Assembly: GCA_037445395.1 (NCBI GenBank)
Contig: JBBIKR010000027.1
Coordinates: 1-38,076 of the forward strand
Direction: 5' to 3'
Source of the DNA: Thermoflexales bacterium
GTDB taxonomy: Bacteria > Chloroflexota > Anaerolineae > B4-G1 > DUEL01
Length of the DNA stretch: 38,076 nucleotides
Shown here: in pieces, positions 2,991 through 38,076 of the stretch
Layout: every line of letters starts with the position of its first letter
Position numbering within the stretch: the first letter of the stretch is position 1
Position numbers and translations under genes: made by a program
The notes under the pieces: model-generated
What the model was told of the DNA's origin: nothing
Seen by the model: only the letters and a program-made list of their open reading frames with translations
Database searches by the model: none

Positions 2991-4898
2991 CTACGTTTCA
3001 CGGAATTCACCCTCAATCACATCCCCCTCGCCGCCGGAGGGGCCGGCACCACCCGGAGTGGGGCCGCCCGGACCGCCCGCCGCCTGCTGCCGGGCGTACA
3101 TCTGCTGGCCCAGCGCCATACTGGCCTGCTGGAGTTGCTCTATCAGCCGCCGGATGCGGGCGATGTCCTCGCCCTTCATCGCCTCCCGCAGGTCGCGAAT
3201 GATGTCCTCAATCCGCTGGCGGTCAGAACCCGACACCTGGTCCCCCAGTTCCCGCAGGAACTTCTCCGTCTGGTAGATGACACTGTCGGCGGCATTGCGG
3301 GCCTCTGCCAGTTCCCTCCGCTGCCGGTCCTCCGCCTCGTGCCGCTTCGCCTCGTTCAGCAACCGCTCCACCTCTTCTTTGCTCAGGTTGGTGGTGGCGG
3401 TGATGGTGATGCGCTGTTCCCGGCCCGTTGCCTTATCCTTCGCCGAGACGTTGAGGATGCCGTTGGCGTCAATGTCAAACGTGACCTCAATCTGCGGGAT
3501 GCCGCGCGGGGCCGGCGGGATGCCCTCCAGGTTAAAGCGGCCCAGGCTGATGTTGTCGGCCGCCATCGGGCGCTCCCCCTGCAGGACGTGGATGGTGACC
3601 ACGGTCTGGCCGTCCTCGGCGGTGGTGAAGATTTCGCTCTTGCGCACCGGGATGGTGGTGTTGCGCGGGATGAGCGGCGTCATCACACCGCCCAGCGTCT
3701 CCACGCCCAGCGTCAGCGGGGTGACGTCCAGCAGGACCACGTCGCGCACCTCGCCGCCCAGGACGCCGGCCTGAATCGCCGCGCCGACGGCCACCACCTC
3801 GTCGGGGTTGACGCCCTTGTGCGGCTCCTTGCCGCCGGTCAGTTCCCGCACCAGGTCCTGAATCATCGGCATCCGGGTGGCGCCGCCCACCAGGACCACC
3901 GCGTCCAGGTCCCGGGCGCTCATCTTCGCATCCCGCAGCGCCTGCTCAAAGGGGCCGCGGCAGCGCTGGACCAGGTCGGCCGTCAACTGCTCCAGTTTGG
4001 CCCGCGTCAGCCGCATCTGCAGGTGCTTGGGGCCGGAAGCGTCGGCGGTGATGAAGGGCAGGTTGATCTCCGTTTCCAGCATCGTGGAGAGTTCAATCTT
4101 CGCCTTCTCCGCCGCTTCCTTCAGCCGCTGGAGCGCCTGCCGGTCCTGCCGCAGGTCAATCCCGTACTCCTTCCTGAACTCATCCGCCACGTAGTTGACG
4201 ATGCGCTGGTCCCAGTCGTCGCCGCCCAGGAAGGTGTCGCCGCTGGTGGCCTTCACCTCAATAACGCCTTCCCCGACCTCCAAGATGGAGACGTCAAAGG
4301 TGCCGCCGCCCAGGTCAAAGACCAGGATGGTCTCCACGCCCTTCTTGTCCAGCCCGTAGGCCAGGGACGCCGCCGTAGGCTCGTTGATGATGCGCAGCAC
4401 CTCCAGCCCGGCGATCTTCCCGGCGTCCTTCGTCGCCTGGCGCTGGCTGTCGTTGAAGTAGGCCGGAACGGTGATGACGGCCTGGGTGACGGGCTCGCCC
4501 AGGTAGGCTTCAGCGTCCTGCTTCAGTTTGCGCAGGATCATCGCCGAGATTTCCTGGGGCGTGTACTCCTTCCCGGTCTGCGGGATGTAGACGCGGGCAT
4601 CCCCCTGCGGCCCGGCGACGATTTTGTACGGAAGAATCCGGCGCGCTTTCTCCACCTCCGGGTCATCGTAGCGCCGCCCCATCAGCCGCTTGATGGAGAA
4701 AATGGTGTTTTCCGGATTGACAATGGCCTGCCGACGGGCCGCCTGGCCCACCAGCCGCTCCCCCGTCTTGGTGAACGCAACGACGGACGGGCAGAGGTTG
4801 CCCCCTTCGGCGGTGGGGATGACGACCGGCTCGCCGCCCATCAGCACGGCCACCACCGAGTTCGTCGTACCCAGATCAATCCCAACGATTTTGCCCAT
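2991..4898 (-). CDS. dnaK: Molecular chaperone DnaK (Hsp70)
   Basis: Hsp70 signatures [21 protein letters not shown] and [14 protein letters not shown] with GGAGGT RBS. Confidence 0.98.
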
Positions 4899-4912
4899 AA
4901 CTCAACCTCCGG

Positions 4913-4948
4913 AATGGTAAATTGGTGACTGGGAAATGGTAAATTGGT
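4913..4948 (-). promoter_or_regulatory. Two perfect 14-bp direct repeats (minus strand ACCAATTTACCATT, 22-bp period) next to the dnaK RBS
   Basis: aatggtaaattggt occurs at 4913-4926 and again at 4935-4948, 2 nt from the GGAGGT RBS of dnaK. No CIRCE-type inverted repeat is present. Confidence 0.5.
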
Positions 4949-5021
4949 ATCCCCGGGAATATCGCGGTATCAGTATGCCACCGATGTATGAGAAATCCGT
5001 TAGAGGTGTATTAGAAACGCG

Positions 5022-15068: not shown

Positions 15069-16073
15069 ATGGAACAGTTTTACGGACTCACGGCTGAAAT
15101 GTATCGGGCGGTGGTCGCCCTGGTGGACGACCGGATGAAGGAGATTCGGGTCACGCGCCAGCACTTTGACCGGCTGGTGAAGGCGCTGGCGCGCACCGAG
15201 GAGCAGTTAAAGGAACTGGTCGCCGCCCAGGCGCGCACGGAAGCGGAACTGCAGGAGTACCGCCGTCAATCCGAGGAGCGGTTCGCCCGCATAGAGGCCG
15301 CGCTGGGGCGGCTGACCGAAGCCCAGGCGCGCACGGAGGAGGAGTTCCGGGAGTACCGCCGCCAATCCGAGGAGCGGTTCGCCCGCATAGAGGCCACGCT
15401 GGAGCGGCTGGCCGAAGCCCAGGCGCACACGGAGGCCCGGGTGCGGGAACTGACGGAAGCCCAGGCGCGCATGGAGGTCGCCATCCAGGAACTGCGGGAT
15501 GCCCAGGCGCGTACCGAGGCCCAGGTGCGGGAACTGGCTGAAGCCCAGGCGCGTACCGAGGCCCAGTTGCAGGACCTGATCCGGGTGGTGGACCGGATGA
15601 ACGATGTGCTGTCCGACGTCCGGGGCAAGCAACTGGAACTTACCTACCAGCGGCGGGCAGCAGCCTATTTCGGCCCTCTCCTGCGGCGACTGCGCGTCCT
15701 CTCGCCCGTTGATATAGAGGACGACCTGGAAGCTCACCTCTCCGCGGAGGAATTCCGGGACCTGGTGGAAGTGGACCTGCTGGTTACCGGCCAACCCCGA
15801 CGTATGCCGGAGGCGCCGCAGGTCTGGCTGGCCGTGGAGGTATCGGCAGTGATTGACCGGCACGACGTGGAGCGGGCCCGGCGGCGGGCGGCGCTTCTGC
15901 GTCGGGCCGGCCTGCGAGCCATCCCTGCTGTGGCCGGAGAACGCATCACGGCGGGAGCCAGAGAAGAGGCGCTGGCGCAGAACGTGCTGGTCATTCAGGA
16001 TGGACGAGCATCCTTCTGGGAAGAAGCACTGGCAGAGGCTCTGAACCCCGCACCGGCCGGCAGCGCAGCGTAA
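15069..16073 (+). CDS. Coiled-coil tandem-repeat protein with a C-terminal PD-(D/E)XK-like module (putative)
   Basis: Six AQARTE-initiated repeats (2 x 32 aa, then 4 x 14 aa). The C-terminus has EVDLLV...WLAVEVSAVIDRHDVERARRRA, which resembles a restriction-endonuclease-fold core. That fold assignment is inference. Confidence 0.6.
   Translation: MEQFYGLTAEMYRAVVALVDDRMKEIRVTRQHFDRLVKALARTEEQLKELVAAQARTEAELQEYRRQSEERFARIEAALGRLTEAQARTEEEFREYRRQSEERFARIEATLERLAEAQAHTEARVRELTEAQARMEVAIQELRDAQARTEAQVRELAEAQARTEAQLQDLIRVVDRMNDVLSDVRGKQLELTYQRRAAAYFGPLLRRLRVLSPVDIEDDLEAHLSAEEFRDLVEVDLLVTGQPRRMPEAPQVWLAVEVSAVIDRHDVERARRRAALLRRAGLRAIPAVAGERITAGAREEALAQNVLVIQDGRASFWEEALAEALNPAPAGSAA
15225..15584 (+). 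repeat. Intragenic tandem repeats (2 x 96 bp, then about 4 x 42 bp)
   Basis: gcccaggcgcgcacgga recurs at codons 53, 85, 117, 131, 145 and 159 of the 15069 gene. The two 96-bp units are near-identical. Confidence 0.85.
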
Positions 16074-27276: not shown

Positions 27277-27311
27277 GACAACTGCTCGCAGTTGTCACAG
27301 GAGGTGGAATC

Positions 27312-27521
27312 ATGGCGAAGGTCGTAGACGCACGGGGCCTCTCCTGCCCCCAGCCGGTCATCCTGGCCCGGCAGGCCATAGAGGAGGGGGAGTTCCCCAT
27401 TGAAGTTTGGGTGGATACCGTCACCTCCCGCGAAAATGTGCGCCGGGCTGCCCAGCGGGCCGGCCTCCAGGTGCAGGTGGAAGCGGTGGGGGACGAGTTT
27501 AAACTGACGTTGACGCGGTAA
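27312..27521 (+). CDS. TusA-family sulfur/selenium carrier protein (69 aa)
   Basis: MAKVVDARGLSCPQPVILARQAI... contains the CPxP active-site motif. GGAGGTG RBS. It is hidden in the ORF track inside the out-of-context ORF 26499-27521. Confidence 0.85.
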   Translation: MAKVVDARGLSCPQPVILARQAIEEGEFPIEVWVDTVTSRENVRRAAQRAGLQVQVEAVGDEFKLTLTR

Positions 27522-30156: not shown

Positions 30157-30279
30157 GCGCCGATTGGAAATCGGCCTGGGTGGGTGCTTTCGCGCCGGGC
30201 GCCAACCTGCGTTGATGCTTCCGGTCAGCGCAGGCCGACCGGAGGCCGAAGGCCCAGGGAGGCGACTTCAGTCGCCGCC
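30157..30279 (+). repeat. GCGCCGATTGGAAATCGGCC-type multi-hairpin repeat, copy A (short form)
   Basis: Shares gcgccgattggaaatcggcct...caacctgcgttgatgcttccggtcagcgcaggccgaccgg...cttcagtcgccgc with copies B and C. Confidence 0.8.
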
Positions 30280-30284
30280 TTTTT

Positions 30285-30522
30285 GCGCCGATGGGAAATC
30301 GGCCTCAGGGGGCGCTTTTGCGCCAGACGTCAACCTGCGTTGATGCTTCCGGTCAGCGCAGGCCGACCGGGGGCTGGAAGCCCAGAGAGGACGACGCCTC
30401 GGGCGAAAGCCCCCTCGGGCCGAGAAGCCCCCTCGGCCTGAGGCCTCGGGGCCGAAGGATCGGGGCCGAGGGCTCGGCAGCCTGTCCCGAGCGAAGCGAG
30501 GGATGGCCCTTCAGTCGGCGCT
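30285..30522 (+). repeat. Same repeat family, copy B (long form with an internal CCTCGGGC-type low-complexity tract)
   Basis: Near-identical to A over about 90 nt. The 3' end ggcccttcagtcggcgct matches copy C. Confidence 0.8.
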
Positions 30523-30542
30523 ACGGTATACAGGAGGAGATT

Positions 30543-31136
30543 ATGAAGAAAATCGTGGATGCCCGGGGGCTACCCTGCCCCCAGCCGGTTCTGCTCACCC
30601 GCAATGCCCTGCAGGAAAGCGACACGGTGACCACCATCGTGGATAGCGATACTGCCCGCCACAACGTGGCCCGGATGGCCGAGAAGGCCGGGTGCACCGT
30701 GCAGGCCGAAGAGCGGGAAGACGGGGTGTACCTGCACATCCGCCGGGGCGAGGCGATGCCGGGGGCGGCTCCGGCCCCTCAGCCGCAACCGGCCGGCGGG
30801 CCGCTGGTCCTGGTCATCCCGTCGGAATTCATGGGCCGCGGCGAGCATGAAGAATTGGGGCAGATTCTGATGCGCGGTTTCCTGCACACCCTGAACGAGG
30901 TCAGCCCCCTGCCCGACGTCATCATCTTCTTCAACAGCGGGGTCAAACTGGTGGTGGAGGGGTCGCCCGTGCTGGAGGACCTGCGTACACTGGCGGATCA
31001 GGGGGTGCAGATTCTGGCCTGTGGCACCTGTCTGGGGTACTACGGCCTGAAGGAGAACGTCGCTATCGGCGAGGTGTCCAACATGTACACCATCGCCGAG
31101 ACGCTGTTGCAGGCGGGGAAAGTCGTTTCACTGTAG
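30543..31136 (+). CDS. yedF: YedF: selenium metabolism protein with an N-terminal TusA-like domain and a C-terminal DsrE-like domain
   Basis: MKKIVDARGLPCPQPVLL (CPxP) plus a C-terminal ...IIFFNSGVKL...ILACGTCLGYYGL... AGGAGGAG RBS. The ORF-track N-terminal extension from 30291 runs through repeats and I reject it. Confidence 0.85.
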   Translation: MKKIVDARGLPCPQPVLLTRNALQESDTVTTIVDSDTARHNVARMAEKAGCTVQAEEREDGVYLHIRRGEAMPGAAPAPQPQPAGGPLVLVIPSEFMGRGEHEELGQILMRGFLHTLNEVSPLPDVIIFFNSGVKLVVEGSPVLEDLRTLADQGVQILACGTCLGYYGLKENVAIGEVSNMYTIAETLLQAGKVVSL

Positions 31137-31400
31137 CACAGGATTTATCCCAATGCCACTAACATTTGGACGTGGGGCGGGCTTTTGAGCCTGCCGGCAG
31201 CCCGGAGAGGCGATCACGCAAAACTCACTCTGTCATTGCGAGCCGCCAAAGGCGGCGAAGCAATCTCCACAAGCCATTCAGGAGATTGCTTCGGGCGCTC
31301 TGCGCCCTCGCAATGACACGGAACAGGGCCATATCGCACTGCCCATAAAGTGAGTCTTGCGGAACCGCGAAAAGTTAGTGCCATTGGGATTTATCCTGTG
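31137..31400. repeat. 264-bp nested palindromic (MITE-like) element filling the convergent yedF/parB gap
   Basis: 27-bp terminal inverted repeats cacaggatttatcccaatgccactaac / gttagtgccattgggatttatcctgtg (3 mismatches). Inner inverted pairs are cgcaaaactcact/agtgagtcttgcg and the LLRFARND-type units 31232-31268/31281-31317. The right end overlaps the last 3 sense codons plus the stop codon of parB. Confidence 0.8.
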
Positions 31401-32239
31401 CGGTAATCCTGCACGAACCGCTGGTACAGTCCCTCCAGTTCCTCTTCTGAGTAGTAGTAGATGATAATCCGTCCCCCCTTCTTCCCCGGGCGGACCTGGA
31501 CGCGCGTCCCCAGCGCCTGCCGGAAACGGTCCTCCAGGGCCTGGATTTCGGGGGCGGCGGACCGGGCGGTCGGGCGCCGGGGCCGGGTCTGCAGAATCCG
31601 CCCCACCAGTTCCTCCGTCTGGCGGACGGTCAGGCCCTGGCGCAGCACCATGCGCAGCGCCGCGACCTGGGCCTCAGGGTCCTCCAGGGCCAGGAGCGCC
31701 CGGGCATGCCCCTCCCCGATGCGGCCGTTGAGGAGCGCTTCCTTGACCGCGTCGGTGGCTTTCAGCAGGCGCAGGGTGTTGGTGACGGCGACCCGGCTCT
31801 TGCCCACCCGCCGGGCCACCTCCTCGTGAGTCAGCCCGAATTCCTCAATCAGTTGCCGGTAGGCCCCCGCCTCCTCCAGCGGGTTCAGGTCCTTCCGCTG
31901 CAGGTTCTCTACCAGCGCCAGTTCCAGCGTCTGCTGGGGGGCCAGGTCCTTGACGATGACGGGCACCGTCGTCAGGCCGGCCAGTTTCGCCGCCCGCCAG
32001 CGCCGCTCCCCCGCCACCAACTGGTAACCGTCCCCATCCCGGACGACGATGAGCGGCTGGAGAACGCCGTGCGTCTGAATGGAAAGGGCCAGTTCCACCA
32101 GTTCGTCGTCCCGGATGAGCATACGGGGCTGATGGGGATTGGGGCGGATGTCCTCCACCGGCACCTCCAGGATGCCGGTCGCTTCCTCGCCGACGGGGAT
32201 CAGCGCTTCCAGCCCCTTGCCCAGGCCGAATTTACCCAT
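31391..32239 (-). CDS. parB: Chromosome partitioning protein ParB (Spo0J)
   Basis: MGKFGLGKGLEALIP N-terminus, ParB box ALVENLQRKDLNPLEEA, and an HTH. ATG 32239 with GGAGGTG RBS overlaps the parA stop by 8 nt. Confidence 0.93.
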   Translation of the reverse strand: MGKFGLGKGLEALIPVGEEATGILEVPVEDIRPNPHQPRMLIRDDELVELALSIQTHGVLQPLIVVRDGDGYQLVAGERRWRAAKLAGLTTVPVIVKDLAPQQTLELALVENLQRKDLNPLEEAGAYRQLIEEFGLTHEEVARRVGKSRVAVTNTLRLLKATDAVKEALLNGRIGEGHARALLALEDPEAQVAALRMVLRQGLTVRQTEELVGRILQTRPRRPTARSAAPEIQALEDRFRQALGTRVQVRPGKKGGRIIIYYYSEEELEGLYQRFVQDYRTG

Positions 32240-33026
32240 GTTCCACCTCCGCCGACGGCGCCCGTCCGTCACCGCTGAGCAGTTCCCAGGCCAGGGCCCG
32301 GTAGGCCAGGTCGCCTGGGGAACGGGGGGCGTAAGCCAGGATGGGGAGCCCGTGGCTGGGGGCCTCGCTCAGCCGGACGTTGCGCGGGATGACCGTCCGG
32401 AAGACCCGGTCTCCGAAATACCGCTGCACTTCCACCACCACCTGCTGGGAGAGATGGGTGCGGGAGTCAAACATCGTCATCACCAGGCCCCGCAGGCGCA
32501 GGTGAGGGTTCAGGGAACGGCGCACCAGGTCCAGCGTGCGCATCAGTTGAGTGAGTCCTTCCAGGGCCAGGTACTCGCACTGGATGGGGACGATGACGCC
32601 GCTTCTGGCGGCGACCAGCGCGTTGACGGTGAGGATGCCCAAACTGGGGGGGCAATCTATCAGGACGTAGTCGTAGCGGTCATCCAGGCCGGAGAGGGCC
32701 ATTTCCAGCCGCCGCTCCCGGGCCAGCATGGGGATCAGTTCCACCGTCGCGCCGGCCAGTTGGGCCGAACTGGGCACCAGGTCCAGCCGCACCCAGCGGG
32801 TCAGGGTGATGATCCCGTCCAGCGGCGCCTCGCGCACCAGGGCATCGTAGACCGTCGCCGGAAGCGCGGCGCGGTCCACCCCCAGGCTGACCGTCGCGTT
32901 GGCCTGGGGGTCCATATCCACCAGCAGGACCCGCTGGCCCCAGTGGGCCAGATAAGCCGCCAGATTGACGGCGGTCGTGGTCTTGCCCACGCCGCCCTTC
33001 TGGTTGGCGAAGGCGTAGATGATCAT
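32232..33026 (-). CDS. parA: ParA/Soj partition ATPase
   Basis: Deviant Walker A FANQKGGVGKTT and DCPPSLG. The ATG overlaps the PfkB stop (ATGA). Confidence 0.95.
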   Translation of the reverse strand: MIIYAFANQKGGVGKTTTAVNLAAYLAHWGQRVLLVDMDPQANATVSLGVDRAALPATVYDALVREAPLDGIITLTRWVRLDLVPSSAQLAGATVELIPMLARERRLEMALSGLDDRYDYVLIDCPPSLGILTVNALVAARSGVIVPIQCEYLALEGLTQLMRTLDLVRRSLNPHLRLRGLVMTMFDSRTHLSQQVVVEVQRYFGDRVFRTVIPRNVRLSEAPSHGLPILAYAPRSPGDLAYRALAWELLSGDGRAPSAEVEHG

Positions 33027-33880
33027 AAATCCTGGTGGTTCTCAATACACCGGACCACTTCCTCCGGGGTGGGGGTGCCGGAGAGGCCGGGCCGGGTGAC
33101 GGAGACGGCGGCGATACAGTTGGCCCGGCGCGCGGCCTGGGTGGGGTTGTCCCTCTGCCAGAGGCGGGCGAAGAAGACGGCCGCGAAGATGTCCCCCGCG
33201 CCGGTGGGGTCCACCTCCCGGGCCGGGAAGGCCGGCAAGTGCCAGACCCGCCCCTCAGCGTAGACGGAGCATCCGCGCGCGCCCCGGGTGACGGCCAGGA
33301 CACGGGTCCGGGCGGCCCAGCGGGCCGCCAGCGCCTCGTCGCCGCCGATGTCCTCCTCGCTCAGGACGACGGCGTCCGCCCGGGGAAGCCACTCCTCCGC
33401 CTCCTCCCACGGGCCGGGGGCGACCCGTCCGGCCCCGTCCCAGCGGCGCATCCAGCCCTGCGGGGTCAGGCCCAGAAAGTCGGCCCGGATGTGGTCGGCC
33501 AGGGCAGGGTCGCACTCCTGCGCCACCGGCCCCAGGTGGAGAATGCCGACGTGGCGCAGGATGAAACCTGCGCCACGGAGAGTATCGGGAGTCAGCGGAG
33601 CGGCGCGGGCGTGGAGAAACTGCATCCGCCCGTCCGAAGTGTACCGGTTTTCAAAGACCGTGTTCCTGGGGGCCGGAATGCGGTAAACGGTGACATCGGG
33701 AAGGACGGCGCTCAGGTCCAGGGAGTCGTCGGTGCTGGTGAGGACGGCGGTACGCAGGCCCAGCGCGCGGGCGGTGCGGGCGGCGTAGGCCGCCGTGCCG
33801 CCGGGGGTCAGCGACCCGTCCGGCAACCGGTCCTGGGTGACATGGCCGACGACGAGGTAGTCCCAGAGAAGCAAACTCAC
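33023..33880 (-). CDS. PfkB-family carbohydrate/nucleoside kinase
   Basis: 285 aa with N-terminal GG motif (TPGGTAAYAA) and C-terminal DPTGAGDIFAAVF anion-hole motif. GTG start overlaps the upstream stop (GTGA). Confidence 0.85.
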   Translation of the reverse strand: MSLLLWDYLVVGHVTQDRLPDGSLTPGGTAAYAARTARALGLRTAVLTSTDDSLDLSAVLPDVTVYRIPAPRNTVFENRYTSDGRMQFLHARAAPLTPDTLRGAGFILRHVGILHLGPVAQECDPALADHIRADFLGLTPQGWMRRWDGAGRVAPGPWEEAEEWLPRADAVVLSEEDIGGDEALAARWAARTRVLAVTRGARGCSVYAEGRVWHLPAFPAREVDPTGAGDIFAAVFFARLWQRDNPTQAARRANCIAAVSVTRPGLSGTPTPEEVVRCIENHQDL

Positions 33881-34308
33881 CGGGGTGCCGTCCTGGTACC
33901 CAACGCTTGCGAAAGCGCACGAAGTCGCGCGCCGATGGGGAGCCCCTGGAACGGAATTTCGTAGGAACTCAGGTGGCCGATCAGGGGCCGATAATATGCT
34001 TTCCCTGCCAGGATAATGAAGTGGTCGGTGCGCAGGTCAGCGTACCGGGCCAGTTGCTCCACCACGCGCTGTGCCCACTCCCGAATCTCACCTGCGGACA
34101 TCGTTTTCAGCGTCTGGTCGTAGGGCTCAACCTCGGCGTCCAGCGGCAACAGGCCGTATTTGGCGGAGAGGATGTAGATGGCATCCGGCGCCAGTTGCTC
34201 CGCGTAGGCCAGACTTTTCCGGAACAGAGCACTGGTATAGAGGTCTCTGGCGCGGGCTTTATGGGGCAACTTCCGCTTGACACAGGAAATCAGGACGATG
34301 CGCTTCAT
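33877..34308 (-). CDS. Small alpha/beta protein resembling the DUF6884 family (function unknown)
   Basis: 143 aa. The pattern MKRIVLISCVKRKL...ARDLYTSALFRKSLAYA...ILSAKYGLLPLD..VEPYDQTL matches what I recall for DUF6884. The family name is from memory. The ATG abuts the upstream TGA with no gap. Confidence 0.5.
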   Translation of the reverse strand: MKRIVLISCVKRKLPHKARARDLYTSALFRKSLAYAEQLAPDAIYILSAKYGLLPLDAEVEPYDQTLKTMSAGEIREWAQRVVEQLARYADLRTDHFIILAGKAYYRPLIGHLSSYEIPFQGLPIGARLRALSQALGTRTAPR

Positions 34309-35043
34309 TCACACCCCCTGTTTGGCACACCACGTTTCCATAGGGCATGCCCGGCACTGCGGGACAACGGCAAGACACCGGGTGCGCCCCAGATGCCACA
34401 GGGCCGCGTCCACAATCCCCGGCAAGTCCGGGTTCATTCTTCGCGCCGCCGCGACCGCCGCCCCATCTGTGGGAGCGTCGCTGACGCCCAGGCGGTATAA
34501 CACGCGCACGGTGTGGGTATTGGGCTTGATGTCTATGCTCCAGCGGTCGGGGAAGCGCACGCGAAAGACCCGTTCAATCAACAACACGGCCATATTCGCG
34601 ATGCCCGGCCCCACACCGTAGATGGAGAGAAAGGTACGGATCACCTCGGCCGCGCTTCGCCCCTCCCAGATTCGGGCCGCGTTCCCGCCGTACCTGTCCA
34701 CGACCAGATGGGTCAACTCATACAGCGTGCGCGGCGCGTCACTGATGTAGTGGGGACGGCGCGGCAGGCGCCGGATCAGAGAGGCCCAATTCTCCAGGGA
34801 GTACGCATACAGACGCCTGGGGTCCAGATGACCAACGACGGTGCGAACGTCGTAGGGGATGGTCCAGATGATTTCAGATTTGGTGCCGCGGTCCAGGCAG
34901 GCGGCCATGCAGAAGGCGTAGGGGTCTGAAGTGACCAGGTATGCGGCGTCGGGCACAACGGTTGGGCAGAGATCGGCCACGGGCACCTTTTCGCCGTAGG
35001 CCACCAGGGCCTGAGTGAGATCGGAAAGGGTTCCGGCCATCAT
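34309..35043 (-). CDS. HhH-GPD superfamily [4Fe-4S] DNA glycosylase-like protein (EndoIII/MutY-like, non-canonical catalytic residues)
   Basis: HhH hairpin IYGVGPGIANMAV, then THTVRVLYRLG (compare EndoIII DTHIFRVCNR). The C-terminal C-x6-C-x2-C-x5-C (CLAVVPQCRACPMETWC) has exactly the EndoIII FeS spacing. AGGAGG RBS. Confidence 0.8.
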   Translation of the reverse strand: MMAGTLSDLTQALVAYGEKVPVADLCPTVVPDAAYLVTSDPYAFCMAACLDRGTKSEIIWTIPYDVRTVVGHLDPRRLYAYSLENWASLIRRLPRRPHYISDAPRTLYELTHLVVDRYGGNAARIWEGRSAAEVIRTFLSIYGVGPGIANMAVLLIERVFRVRFPDRWSIDIKPNTHTVRVLYRLGVSDAPTDGAAVAAARRMNPDLPGIVDAALWHLGRTRCLAVVPQCRACPMETWCAKQGV

Positions 35044-35123
35044 CCCTCCTTTGCCGTAAATACCTCACCCTTCCCCCTCATAGGCGCTAACTCAATGGAG
35101 TGCCGGGCTGTCCACCGCCAGGA

Positions 35124-35278
35124 GCGCCGATTGGAAATCGGCCTCCCTGGTCGCTTTCGCGCCCGGCGTCGGCCTGCGCCGACGCATGCTCCCGGTCGGC
35201 GAAGGCCGACCGGAGGCTGGAAGCCCAAAGAGGACGACGCCTCGGGCGAGCCCTCGGCGTGGCCCTTCAGTCGGCGCT
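35124..35278 (+). repeat. GCGCCGATTGGAAATCGGCC-type repeat, copy C
   Basis: Shares its 5' end (gcgccgattggaaatcggcct), middle (ggccgaccggaggctggaagccca.agaggacgacgcctcgggcga) and 3' end (ggcccttcagtcggcgct) with copy B. Confidence 0.8.
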
Positions 35279-35325
35279 TCGTGCGACCCCGCCCGAAGGA
35301 GTACCCGGAATCCCCGGATGGCCTG

Positions 35326-36075
35326 CTACTCTTTCCCCACACGCGGAATAATCGTCACCCGGCGGCGGTTGCCCTCGCCGACGCTCTGGGTGGTGACGTC
35401 GGGGTGGTCCCGGAGCGCCAGGTGGATGATGCGGCGCTCGTAGGGGGGCATCGGCTCCAGATAGACGGTGCGCCCGCTCCGGACCGCCTGAGTGGCCATC
35501 CGCTCCGCCAGACGGCGGAGGTTCTGCTCCCGCCGTTGCTTGTAACCCTGGACGTCCACCACCAGATTGACCATCTGGCCCATCTTCCGATTGACCAGCA
35601 CGCGCAGGATGTGCTGAAGCGCAGCCAGGGTCTCCCCGCGCGGGCCGATCAGCGTGTCCGCCCCGGCGGTCTGGATATTCAGCACAAGGGCGGCCGTCTC
35701 CTCATCGGTTGCCGGCTCCGCCAAGCGGACCTGAATCTCGGCGGAGTATCCCAGGTGACGGAGGAGGTCCTCCAGTATGGAGCGGGCCACTTCAGCAGCC
35801 GGCGACTCCGGAGCGACCGGGGGAACCGGTGGGGCTGGGGCCGGGGTCGGGACCGGCGCAGGAATGGCCTCGGGGGCCACCAGCGGCGTGAGCCGGACCC
35901 GCGCCATCCGGGCGCCGATGCCCAGAATGCCCCGGCTCCCTTCGTCCAGAATCTCAATTTCCACCGCCTCGCGCGGGAGACGCAGCGCAGTCAGCCCCGC
36001 CGCGATGGCGGCCTCTACGGTCTCGCCGAAGAAAATCTTGCCTTCTGTGCTCACATTCGTACCCTCTTGGAGCAA
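35326..36075 (-). CDS. jag: Jag/KhpB RNA-binding protein (Jag_N, KH, R3H)
   Basis: N-terminal ...GETVEAAIAAGLTALRLPREAVEIEILDEGSRG, a Pro/Ala linker, and the C-terminal R3H region YERRIIHLALRDHPDVTTQSVGEGNRRRVTI. TTG 36075 has a GGAGG RBS, and GTG 36054 is an alternative start. Confidence 0.88.
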   Translation of the reverse strand: MLQEGTNVSTEGKIFFGETVEAAIAAGLTALRLPREAVEIEILDEGSRGILGIGARMARVRLTPLVAPEAIPAPVPTPAPAPPVPPVAPESPAAEVARSILEDLLRHLGYSAEIQVRLAEPATDEETAALVLNIQTAGADTLIGPRGETLAALQHILRVLVNRKMGQMVNLVVDVQGYKQRREQNLRRLAERMATQAVRSGRTVYLEPMPPYERRIIHLALRDHPDVTTQSVGEGNRRRVTIIPRVGKE

Positions 36076-36081
36076 GTTTCT

Positions 36082-36888
36082 TTACCTCCGCCTCTTCCGC
36101 CGGGCGGGCTGGGACGGCCGCTCTTTGGGGCGTTCTGCCTCTTTCGGCCGTTCCGATTCCTTCGGTGCCTCCGCCGCGCCCGCCGGGACCGGCTGCGGCC
36201 TGGGCGTCACAAAGTACTGGAGCAGGGTAACCAGATTGGAGATGATGAAGTAAATGGAAAGCCCTGAGGCATAGGAGATGGAGATGAAGCCGAACATTAA
36301 CGGCATCATGATCAACATCTGCTGGTTCATCGCCCTGGACTGGGGGTCCGTGGAGGGCGGGGTCAAGATTTTCTGCGAGAGCCATGAAGTGACCACCACC
36401 AGGATGGGAAGGACGTAATACGGGTCCGGTTGCCCCAGGTCCATCCACAGGAATCGGCTCTGCAGAGGGATGAGGGAGGCCAGGCCGGGGATGAAGGGAT
36501 AGACGTTCTGGGAAAGGCGGACCAGGTCCAGCGGACTGACCGCCAGGGTGCGCATGATGGCCTGCCAGAGGCCGTAGAGGAGAGGTAGTTGGATCAGGAG
36601 GGGCAGGCACCCTCCCAGGGGATTCATGCCGGCCTCCCGGTAGAGTTTCATCTGCTCCTGGGCCAGTTTTTCCCGGTCATTCGCATACAGTTTCTGGAGT
36701 TTCGCCAGTTCCGGCTGCAGTTCCTGCATCCGGCGGGCCGATTGCTGCTGCTTCAACGTCAACGGCAGGACGGCCAGCCGCACCACCAGCGTGAGCGCGG
36801 TAATCGCCAGCACCGTCTGGTGGCCCAGGAGGCGGTAAAACAGCAGCAACAGGTTCACCATCGGGTTCAAAATCAGAAAATCCCACAT
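36082..36888 (-). CDS. yidC: Membrane protein insertase YidC (short Oxa1-type)
   Basis: 268 aa with LPLTLKQQQSARRMQELQPELAKLQKLY..., NPLGGCLPLLIQLPLLYGLW and a basic C-terminal tail. Confidence 0.93.
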   Translation of the reverse strand: MWDFLILNPMVNLLLLFYRLLGHQTVLAITALTLVVRLAVLPLTLKQQQSARRMQELQPELAKLQKLYANDREKLAQEQMKLYREAGMNPLGGCLPLLIQLPLLYGLWQAIMRTLAVSPLDLVRLSQNVYPFIPGLASLIPLQSRFLWMDLGQPDPYYVLPILVVVTSWLSQKILTPPSTDPQSRAMNQQMLIMMPLMFGFISISYASGLSIYFIISNLVTLLQYFVTPRPQPVPAGAAEAPKESERPKEAERPKERPSQPARRKRRR

Positions 36889-36896
36889 TTCCTGCT

Positions 36897-36923
36897 CCGT
36901 ATTCCGTGGTCGGTGATTCCGTC
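36897..36923. repeat. ACGGAAT-type short repeats in the 35-nt gap between the bamB-like stop and the yidC start
   Basis: The minus strand reads gacggaatcaccgaccacggaatacgg. Same word family as 22503, 27531 and 8031. Confidence 0.5.
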
Positions 36924-38039
36924 TTACTGTTGCTGGGCCGGATATGACCAGACCGGGCGGCCGTTCTCCACGTAGAAGGCCTGCACGCGCTGGGGGGCGT
37001 TGATGCGGGTCACATAGACCCGCTCCCCGCCGATCGCCATAGAGCCCAACTGTCCCTGGCCGGCCTGCTGCCAGAGAACGAAGCCGTCGGCGGTATCCAG
37101 ACCGAAGAGGGTGCCGTTCTCGCTGGCGATCAGCAACCGCTTCCCGTCCGGGCTCAGTGCTGGGCCCAGCCGGACGGCCCCCTGCACCCGACTGCGCCAG
37201 ATTTCCTGCCCGGTCGCCGCATCCAGCGCGTAGACGTTGCCACCCACATCGGCCGCGTAGAGGCGGCTGCCGTCGCTCGCCGGAGTCCCCCAGAACCAGT
37301 TGGCGCCGGTAAAGCGCCAGATTTCGGTGCCATCGGCCAGCCGCAGAGCGTAGAGGTTGTGGTCAAATGAACCGATGTAGAGGGTATCGGTCAGGACGAG
37401 AGGGCGGTCGGCCATGGCGCTACCGGCCTGAAACTGCCAGCGCAGCACGCCGGTCTGCAGGTCCAGGGCATAGAGGTGGTGGTCCAGCGAAGCGATGTAG
37501 ACGGTATCGGATATGATCAGGGGCGTCGCCCAGACCCGGCCCCGGGTGGGATATTGCCAGGCGAGGGTGCCGTCGTCTATCCGCAGGCCGTAGACGTTGC
37601 CGTCGCTGTTGCCGATGACGAAGATACCGTCTCCGGCGGCGCCGGGAGCGATGAATTCCCCGCCCGCGGTGAAGGGTTGGGGCCATGCCATCCGACCGCC
37701 GTTGAGGGAAAGGGCGCGCAGGACACCCTGAGAATGGGCAAAGAAGCCGCCCCCGGTCCGTTCGTAGGACGTGACCAGGAGCAGTTCATCGTTCAGCAGG
37801 GTGACCGTGTAGAAGGGACCGTACTGACGGAGGTCCGGTGTGGCGGGGAACGCCCAGACTTCCTGACCGGTCTCCGCGTCCAGCGCCCGCACCTGTTCCA
37901 GGTCCGCCACGTAGAGGGTTCCGTCGTGGAGGAGCAGGGTGGTCCATGTGGTGGCGCGGATGCCGCCGGAACAACCGGCGAGGAGGAGGACGGCCAGCAG
38001 GGCCAGGGCGACCGGGTGGATATGCGATGGTCTATTCAC
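36924..38039 (-). CDS. PQQ-like beta-propeller repeat lipoprotein (BamB-like)
   Basis: Lipobox LLLAGCSG after an N-terminal signal peptide. Repeated ...LYALD..TG...W.. blades. GTG start with AGGAG RBS. Confidence 0.85.
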   Translation of the reverse strand: MNRPSHIHPVALALLAVLLLAGCSGGIRATTWTTLLLHDGTLYVADLEQVRALDAETGQEVWAFPATPDLRQYGPFYTVTLLNDELLLVTSYERTGGGFFAHSQGVLRALSLNGGRMAWPQPFTAGGEFIAPGAAGDGIFVIGNSDGNVYGLRIDDGTLAWQYPTRGRVWATPLIISDTVYIASLDHHLYALDLQTGVLRWQFQAGSAMADRPLVLTDTLYIGSFDHNLYALRLADGTEIWRFTGANWFWGTPASDGSRLYAADVGGNVYALDAATGQEIWRSRVQGAVRLGPALSPDGKRLLIASENGTLFGLDTADGFVLWQQAGQGQLGSMAIGGERVYVTRINAPQRVQAFYVENGRPVWSYPAQQQ

Positions 38040-38076
38040 GCTGGGGCTCTCCTTGAAATGACCAATGTACCAATGA

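Follow-up and report, generated by a model that had tools for sequence, protein, structure and literature searches.

A 38,076-nucleotide (nt) stretch of DNA from a Thermoflexales bacterium (Chloroflexota; contig JBBIKR010000027.1), hereafter called the window, carries on its minus strand a row of genes in which a predicted glycosylase-like protein of 244 amino acids (aa), a DUF6884 protein of 143 aa, and a PfkB-family kinase are encoded between jag and the partition genes parA and parB. All eight minus-strand open reading frames (ORFs) and the four junctions between the last five genes were found where a sequence-only reading of the window had placed them (ORF list and minus-strand sequence), and the family calls of that reading, DUF6884, PfkB, ParA, ParB, Jag, YidC, and PQQ, were borne out by Pfam and NCBIfam. 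The same reading took the glycosylase, DUF6884, and PfkB genes for one functional unit that is co-translated with ParAB and could link base or nucleoside processing to chromosome segregation. Our results lead us to a different view, in which the locus combines an old, clade-wide jag–PfkB–parAB string with a mobile glycosylase–DUF6884 module that probably serves a defense-type base surveillance and shows no link to segregation.

The string itself was found in five comparison genomes (L085 to L089), which are Thermoflexales, Thermoflexia, and other Chloroflexota metagenome-assembled genomes whose PfkB orthologs are 88, 84, 64, 61, and 54% identical to that of the window. All five have the order (rpmH)–rnpA–yidD–PQQ–yidC–jag–PfkB–parA–parB without a glycosylase or DUF6884 gene, which indicates that the string existed beforehand and that the pair is an insertion. 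Where the module is missing, jag and PfkB can lie so close that the jag stop and the PfkB start overlap by 1 nt (TAGTG in L086) or the two genes overlap by 4 nt (L087). The five-gene order of the window is confined to the window and seven loci of close relatives (L001, L002, L005, and L091 to L094). Between the window and these lineage relatives the module proteins are 80 to 85% identical, compared with 88 to 97% for YidC, Jag, PfkB, ParA, and ParB (ParA, 91 to 97%), and GC3 is 0.78 and 0.74 in the two module genes versus 0.82 to 0.90 in the flanking genes. The glycosylase and DUF6884 genes together make up a horizontally acquired insertion of approximately 1.45 kb inside a string that the clade has in common.

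The pair is tightly packed against its neighbors. Read on the minus strand, the glycosylase-like gene runs into the DUF6884 gene with a 0-nt gap (...GTGTGA followed directly by ATGAAG, the TGA ending at 34309 and the ATG starting at 34308), the DUF6884 stop and the GTG start of PfkB share a GTGA at 33877 to 33880 (CCGGTGAGT), the PfkB stop and the parA ATG share an ATGA at 33023 to 33026 (TTTATGATC), and parA and parB overlap by 8 nt at 32232 to 32239 (ATGGGTAA). An AAGGAGG Shine-Dalgarno sequence lies immediately 5' of the glycosylase-like ATG, inside the gap that follows jag. Bacterial operons often have start/stop overlaps of this sort, which by themselves are not beyond chance. Within the lineage, the glycosylase/DUF6884 spacing of 0 to 1 nt and the 4-nt overlap of DUF6884 and PfkB are conserved, the jag–glycosylase gap ranges from approximately 90 to 640 nt, and the PfkB–parA gap ranges from approximately 66 to approximately 386 nt, so that the ATGA overlap with parA is peculiar to the window. 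Of the single translationally coupled operon that had been proposed, the tight packing of the five genes stands, and they may well be co-transcribed, while the coupling to parA comes down to an overlap seen in the window alone. A scan of positions 31000 to 38076 for sigma-70 promoter and terminator consensus sequences, which is uninformative for this phylum, found none on the minus strand between genes, and this fits, as weak evidence, a single transcript. We would read the tight codon overlaps as the mark of an insertion riding on an existing operon with read-through preserved, rather than as a functional tie to segregation.

Table 1. Features of the locus in the window, with positions counted from its first nucleotide
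Feature	Position	Strand	Remarks
PQQ/BamB-like	36924-38039	minus	Clear Pfam PQQ match
yidC	36082-36888	minus	Clear Pfam YidC match
jag/KhpB-like	35326-36075	minus	Jag_N, KH, and R3H domains
jag–glycosylase gap, 282 nt	35044-35325	minus	One copy of a hairpin-rich repeat of ~128 nt (35124-35249)
HhH-GPD/[4Fe-4S] glycosylase-like, 244 aa	34309-35043	minus	First gene of inserted module; AlphaFold2 model, Foldseek, and profile alignment
DUF6884, 143 aa	33877-34308	minus	PF21818; second gene of inserted module
PfkB/ribokinase-family kinase, 285 aa, GTG start	33023-33880	minus	PF00294; ancestral at this position, outside the module
parA, Soj-type partition ATPase	32232-33026	minus	AAA_31 (2.4e-60) and CbiA; flanking, ancestral
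parB, Spo0J-type	31391-32239	minus	ParB_N, HTH_ParB, and ParB_C; TIGR00180 (5e-54); flanking, ancestral

Sites next to jag have received other sequences as well. In one comparison genome (L085), a DUF433 and PIN toxin–antitoxin pair lies between yidC and jag (3288 to 3898), and a jag–PfkB gap of 345 nt (4655 to 5001) holds a direct repeat of approximately 110 nt; insertions appear to have hit the jag region repeatedly. In the window, the repeat that had been noted in the gap between jag and the glycosylase-like gene proved real. It is a GC-rich intergenic unit with three copies, the other two standing in tandem at 30157 to 30284 and 30285 to 30412, upstream of a TusA/DsrE-like gene. The unit (families D2 to D4) also matches the relatives L091 and L001 downstream of parB, and it is probably a REP/MITE-like element.

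The first protein of the module was modeled with AlphaFold2 from 56 homologs as an all-helical structure (pLDDT, 96.3; pTM, 0.92), for which a Foldseek search of the PDB returned 1orn (6e-7), 2abk, endonuclease III (EndoIII), MutY/MUTYH, NTHL1, and MIG, all with a probability of 1.00 and with target-normalized TM-scores of approximately 0.65 to 0.7 against the EndoIII/MutY-type structures. In the profile-to-PDB alignment, the family stretch ikpDvHtvRv falls on iavDTHveRv of EndoIII, the consensus DIKPDvH aligning with VDTH, and GVGpGian falls on GVGRKTAN. The position of the Lys nucleophile in bifunctional EndoIII/Nth enzymes (GVGRK) corresponds to an invariant Gly147 (GVGPG) in the glycosylase-like family, the [4Fe-4S] ligands C223, C230, C233, and C239 (Cys-x6-Cys-x2-Cys-x5-Cys) are invariant in 56 sequences, and D171, K173, D212, and W216 are further family invariants. 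A Pfam scan of the window proteins gave no match for the 244-aa protein, PF00730 included, its close homologs are likewise without a Pfam match, and NCBIfam gave a weak match to TIGR03252 (4e-12); PF00730 is matched by 19 of 85 more distant multidomain relatives of the family. Model and sequence place the protein in a divergent family with the helix-hairpin-helix (HhH)-GPD/[4Fe-4S] fold of EndoIII and MutY, which has two helical domains, predicted to be of the monofunctional type because an invariant Gly sits where bifunctional enzymes have the Lys nucleophile.

The window copy departs from its own family at the catalytic site. In enzymes of the EndoIII/MutY type, a catalytic Asp in a D-T/V-H motif follows the hairpin at a distance of about 20 residues. 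Of 56 aligned family members, 55 have Asp at the corresponding position 175, as do the seven lineage relatives without exception, and the window has Asn there (codon AAT, 34519 to 34521, minus strand), which is explicable by a single G-to-A change. An exchange of Asp for Asn at this site cripples MutY and EndoIII, and with Asn in place of the catalytic Asp the module may be attenuated or dead in the window genome. In two of the lineage relatives it is the DUF6884 gene that is disrupted, split after approximately codon 105 by an insertion of approximately 155 nt with three hairpins in L091 (5566 to 5721) and carrying a 1-nt deletion inside the LSAKYG codons in L094 (around position 3221). Together with Asn175, these disruptions suggest relaxed selection and a module that is eroding in the lineage.

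The second protein of the module matches PF21818 at 4.4e-46 (156.8 bits; cutoff, 30), and both of its motifs, CxxxK (C9 and K13) and LSAKYG (residues 47 to 52), are intact in the alignment. CxxxK and LSAxxG form the active site proposed by the Pfam curators (PMC11701544). The structure prediction that the sequence-only reading had called for gave a model with a pLDDT of 93.3 and a YaaA-like ("cantaloupe") fold, YaaA itself (5caj; 7e-5, probability 1.00) being the only significant match in the PDB. By its sequence, the protein belongs to the YaaA/DpdC superfamily, whose members bind DNA and are predicted to flip bases, and within it to the PADLOC subfamily PDC-M57A. Compared with a typical length of 134 aa, the window protein has a 9-aa C-terminal tail that is poorly predicted and runs into the PfkB start, and this tail looks like an ORF lengthened to the first stop after integration.

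Outside the lineage, the two proteins keep each other's company, and a second partner of DUF6884 comes into view. The best 80 DUF6884 matches among 185,579 species-representative genomes are 45 to 83% identical to the window protein and come from Chloroflexota, Proteobacteria, Bacteroidota, Desulfobacterota, Verrucomicrobiota, CPR bacteria, methanogens, and DPANN archaea. A gene for a protein of approximately 213 aa, M57B, lies directly downstream on the same strand in 57 of them, an HhH-like gene is adjacent in 17, neither is present in 4, and a contig edge intervenes in 2. A second sample was drawn with the HhH-like protein as the query; among its 80 metagenome loci, DUF6884 is adjacent in 43 and a longer YaaA-like protein (PF03883) in 19, for a total of 62/80; the other 18 have neither, and 6 of those are too short to tell. 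The order and orientation of the glycosylase and DUF6884 genes are variable, M57B is always downstream of DUF6884, and no third conserved partner emerges in the neighborhoods of the glycosylase pairs. The DUF6884 proteins are 56% identical between the M57B- and HhH-partnered groups versus 58 to 59% within the groups, and the nearest DUF6884 neighbor carries the same partner type in 104 of 111 cases. The DUF6884 proteins of both kinds of pair have thus barely diverged, which implies that one type of DUF6884 works with either of two putative DNA-damaging effectors.

Natural fusions tie the glycosylase and DUF6884 proteins together more directly. When 1.84 billion cluster representatives (50% identity clustering) were searched exhaustively with a family profile, this yielded 844 clusters of the glycosylase family at an E value of ≤1e-10, and 85 of the 150 best matches are at least 300 aa long. 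DUF6884 is carried by 26 of these 85 multidomain representatives (best E value, 9e-49), while DUF7662 is found in 11, DUF4357 in 4, DUF7669 in 3, MrcB_N in 1, and a PfkB domain in none; DUF7662 also occurs fused to DUF6884. MrcB_N is the modified-DNA-reading domain of McrB. One glycosylase–DUF6884 fusion of 410 aa (P0217) recurs on 3 contigs from 2 samples, and at one of its loci (L177, 1 to 4785) the genes upstream of it are ParB_N-like, SNF2-helicase, unknown, and radical-SAM-like, surroundings that may be a DNA-modification or restriction island. Further fusions of the glycosylase domain, in P0131, P0167, P0236, P0192/P0231, and others, involve DUF6998, DUF7662, DUF4357, DUF7669, and MrcB_N, as well as additional unassigned domains of approximately 100 to 150 aa, some of which have a YPxKxI stretch in common and look like possible modified-DNA reader modules.

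The functional linkage that had been claimed for three genes therefore holds for two of them. The glycosylase and DUF6884 genes are adjacent in most loci and often fused, and the proposed check for co-occurrence and fusions came out in favor of this pair and against the kinase. We consider it highly improbable that glycosylase, DUF6884, and PfkB form one unit tied to partition. The tight junctions in the window and the DUF6884/PfkB overlap kept in seven lineage relatives speak for such a unit, as does a single, unrelated metagenome locus (L149, 4531 to 6720) in which the genes directly upstream of an HhH-like gene encode a different PfkB kinase (Pfam, 3.5e-24) and a protein resembling nucleoside 2-deoxyribosyltransferases (2.2e-23). 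We set this case aside as support for a kinase link, since its PfkB is only 20% identical to that of the window and the case is a single one; the locus is without DUF6884, and a weak HNH_2-like ORF follows the HhH-like gene. On the other side, PfkB–parAB occurs without the pair in 5/5 related genomes, the pair is accompanied by PfkB and ParA/ParB only in the seven close-relative loci and in 0 of approximately 150 others, the multidomain representatives lack the kinase domain, even close relatives do not share the parA overlap, and PfkB resembles inositol kinases. The co-occurrence of all three families beyond close relatives, which the sequence-only reading had itself set as a test, was not found, and the kinase and parAB come out as bystanders. 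Of its wider suggestion, a base or nucleoside processing function tied to segregation or to DNA modification, the chemistry of DNA bases or their modification is still plausible, and a link to segregation was not supported.

The kinase deserves attention in its own right. It matches PF00294 at 7.6e-19 (68.6 bits; cutoff, 25.8) and has the motif DPTGAGD with the catalytic Asp. It falls far below every NCBIfam equivalog cutoff (best, TIGR02152 with 52.8 versus 299.65 bits), and the nucleoside kinase model NF041164 scores 26.8 against a cutoff of 450. Its full-length structure matches are to myo-inositol kinases only, namely, TM0415 (5ysp/1vk4; 6e-10) and TK2285 (3w4s; 2e-5), with which it has the IGHV..D and PR.T..ENRY stretches in common. 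R229 and R232 around GXGD mark the pyrophosphate-dependent myo-inositol kinases (PMC5931981). The window protein has P and A at these positions, and the absence of the signature points to a donor of the ATP type (GAGD motif). The protein thus appears to be an inositol-kinase-like enzyme of the ribokinase family. Of the earlier suggestion of a sugar/nucleoside kinase, the nucleoside kinase does not sit with solved full-length matches that are inositol kinases, and a role as a nucleoside kinase on excised bases was rejected because PfkB predates the module and resembles inositol kinases. All sampled genomes of the clade have PfkB placed after jag and before parA, usually 8 to 80 nt from the latter (L085 to L089), and we flag this synteny in Chloroflexota.

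For the pair, the defense literature offers the closest label. The window DUF6884 protein matches the PADLOC model PDC-M57A (PDLC04712) at 1.7e-57 over residues 1 to 135 of 138, the alternative partner matches PDC-M57B at 3.4e-99, and the DpdC models of PADLOC match the window DUF6884 weakly (2e-6). M57B was not found in the window, and the adjacent HhH-like protein is without a PADLOC match. PDC-M57 is one of 145 phage defense candidates that were defined by their location within BREX, DISARM, or type I restriction-modification systems (Payne et al., bioRxiv 10.1101/2024.01.29.577857); a literature search for the name PDC-M57 led to a supplementary table only. Sub-threshold matches recur among 31 M57B members (DUF123 in 21, GIY-YIG in 14, and GIY_YIG_2 in 7), and neither a single M57B sequence nor an M57B profile found a match among PDB sequences. 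An hhalign comparison of M57B with the glycosylase family gave a probability of 1.8%, so that the two are unrelated, and the idea that the two partners are divergent forms of one protein was rejected. Restriction and defense genes also recur in the otherwise heterogeneous surroundings of the glycosylase pairs: type I restriction-modification HsdR and HsdS, Abi_C, Mrr_cat, and AIPR around L090; HNH nucleases, an ADP-ribosylglycohydrolase, and a P22 antirepressor-like gene around L003; and EcoRV, EcoO109I, N6_N4 methylases, Type ISP, BrxL, DUF6079, Fic, and PD-(D/E)xK elsewhere. We would best describe the pair as a form of the candidate system PDC-M57 that bears a glycosylase, with accessory repair as the main rival.

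What such a variant might recognize is hinted at by phages. DpdC, from the Dpd 7-deazaguanine restriction-modification system, converts preQ0-DNA to ADG-DNA (PMC10164549), and homologs of DUF6884 were found in 32 phage records. DpdA, a transglycosylase of the TGT family, is the enzyme by which 7-deazaguanine is inserted into DNA. In Fusobacterium phage phiFN37 (L171, 2715 to 5024), genes for a ParB-like protein, a queuine tRNA-ribosyltransferase, a DUF6884 protein (44% identical), and a preQ transporter stand together, and in Halorubrum tailed virus 29 (HRTV-29, genus Dpdavirus; L173, 3501 to 4626) the DUF6884 gene overlaps DpdA; the former DUF6884 protein is annotated as hypothetical and the latter as YaaA. 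Four other phage contexts are uninformative. These short phage proteins in DpdA/TGT clusters are likely unrecognized DpdC analogs.

Our results lead us to infer a division of labor in which DUF6884 would find, and possibly chemically convert, a noncanonical base in DNA, for which a phage-type modified base such as 7-deazaguanine is our best guess, and in which the partner enzyme would then excise the base or cut the DNA, so that abasic sites or breaks arise and the marked DNA is destroyed. Taken to its most specific form, the HhH-GPD/[4Fe-4S] and DUF6884 proteins would be a two-component anti-phage system directed at 7-deazaguanine-type (or similar) hypermodified DNA, in which a DpdC-like reader or converter, taken over from DNA-modification pathways, licenses a dedicated glycosylase or, in PDC-M57, the GIY-YIG nuclease; we put this forward as a doubtful proposal. 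If true, the design would be a modular one, a sensor with an exchangeable effector, and would set a modification enzyme against the modification itself.

Several observations weigh against such a defense reading. Many neighbors of the pairs are housekeeping genes (dnaN, DNA polymerase III subunits, and prmA), and the recurrence of defense genes is a listing and not an enrichment statistic; the defense label for PDC-M57 and for the glycosylase family is a case of guilt by association. A profile search for glycosylase homologs in viral contigs gave 25 pattern matches, none confirmed, and a glycosylase search of a plasmid collection gave no match. A tblastn search with two phage DpdA/TGT proteins found none in the window or in 170 loci, and no que genes lie near any cellular pair, which makes the link to 7-deazaguanine indirect. 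The DUF6884 disruptions in the relatives could be metagenome assembly errors. Finally, pull-downs with abasic and ribonucleotide lesions recovered YfjM, a DUF6884 protein of Bacillus subtilis (PMC10220248), an enrichment that fits repair as well as defense.

The pair could, then, be an accessory base-excision-repair module in which the monofunctional glycosylase removes a damaged base and leaves an abasic site for DUF6884 to bind, shield, or process, Lys13 of CxxxK being one candidate for an apurinic/apyrimidinic lyase nucleophile, and its spread would be explained by use under oxidative or thermal stress. EndoIII and MutY, whose fold the glycosylase has, are repair enzymes, a family without the Lys nucleophile needs something else to handle the abasic site, YaaA is a DNA-binding protein of peroxide stress, and, besides the replication and housekeeping neighbors mentioned above, the window pair itself sits in a constitutive housekeeping operon. 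We nevertheless regard repair as rather unlikely, given that the pair is patchily distributed across phyla and domains at 50 to 60% identity, that restriction-modification and defense neighbors are frequent, that the effector is interchangeable with a GIY-YIG-like nuclease, that fusions to MrcB_N and to nuclease-like domains exist, and that the closest sister genomes lack the pair, which appears to be eroding in the lineage.

Marking of the host's own chromosome is a further explanation, in which the HhH-GPD protein would exchange or remove a base and DUF6884 would finish the chemistry in the manner of DpdC. The fact that a relative of DUF6884, DpdC, modifies DNA agrees with this, as do the phage homologs in DpdA clusters and the one fusion beside ParB_N-like, SNF2, and radical-SAM-like genes. 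Neither a TGT/DpdA gene nor a precursor-synthesis gene lies near any of the 170 cellular loci or in the window, the alternative GIY-YIG-like partner is destructive rather than modifying, and base insertion is not known for hydrolytic HhH-GPD glycosylases, so that we hold self-modification to be very unlikely. The lack of DpdA/TGT near the cellular pairs fits instead with the reading of foreign or aberrant bases that we favor.

Two further features of the window may be recorded. A plus-strand ORF at 15069 to 16073, whose only Pfam match is a weak one to DUF16, contains tandem in-frame repeats of 42 and 96 nt (15216 to 15590) that encode a Glu/Ala/Arg/Gln-rich, probably coiled-coil segment. The stretches at 27309 to 27385 and 30540 to 30616 are 71% identical and encode the N termini of two TusA-like proteins, in a region that also has selD/AIRS-like and class-V aminotransferase genes and is a sulfur- or selenium-transfer cluster, syntenic in relatives.

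Our findings do away with an appealing but mistaken connection of base excision to chromosome partition and define a widespread glycosylase family that Pfam largely misses and whose members almost always have DUF6884 or a YaaA-like protein as a neighbor or fusion partner. The DUF6884/YaaA/DpdC superfamily, itself poorly understood, thereby gains a concrete, testable partner enzyme, and the theme of antiviral DNA glycosylases may extend to a two-component architecture with an exchangeable effector.

Set beside known arrangements, the locus is both familiar and distinct. The classical origin-proximal order of the B. subtilis type is jag–mnmE–mnmG–rsmG–noc–soj–spo0J. The window likewise keeps the rnpA/yidD/yidC/jag ... 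parA/parB order, whereas the Chloroflexota clade has PfkB between jag and parA (5/5 relatives), and the glycosylase/DUF6884 pair is an extra, lineage-specific insertion in the window. The glycosylase-like protein has in common with EndoIII and MutY the fold, the HhH GVG hairpin, the D-x-H catalytic motif (as a family), and the C-x6-C-x2-C-x5-C cluster, but is less than 21% identical to them, lacks a PF00730 match and the Lys nucleophile, and, in the window copy, has the catalytic Asp replaced by Asn. Like PDC-M57, the pair is a compact, mobile two-gene cassette, often beside restriction-modification genes, with a DUF6884 protein that is M57A over its full length; unlike PDC-M57, it has an unrelated HhH-GPD/[4Fe-4S] protein in place of the GIY-YIG-like M57B, and its gene order is variable.

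The window DUF6884 protein is related to DpdC through the DUF6884/YaaA superfamily and the weak PADLOC match, and phage DUF6884 proteins that are 38 to 44% identical to it occupy the position of DpdC beside DpdA. In contrast, DpdC is approximately 310 aa long and acts downstream of DpdA and DpdB, with no DpdA/TGT near the cellular pairs. Nor is the window ParB a counterpart of DpdB, which is a ParB-like ATPase: it is a canonical partition protein of full Spo0J architecture, syntenic in relatives without the module, and was rejected as a DpdB analog. Dag glycosylases of the HhH superfamily defend against phages with 7-deazaguanine DNA (10.1101/2025.10.29.685425), and Dag1/Dag2 from that study, together with Brig1 (PMC11078745), are alike to the present family in having a DNA-glycosylase fold outside housekeeping repair, on mobile DNA and in defense-rich neighborhoods. 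Brig1 differs in belonging to the UDG superfamily. The four-residue spacing of the essential Asp184/Trp188 of Dag1 recalls the invariant Asp212/Trp216 of the family, by the description in the paper and not by alignment. The Dag proteins, however, are single-gene systems, and for Dag1 a bifunctional mechanism through a Lys–Asp pair was inferred, while the window family has Gly at the HhH Lys, a [4Fe-4S] loop, and a near-constant DUF6884 or YaaA-like partner.

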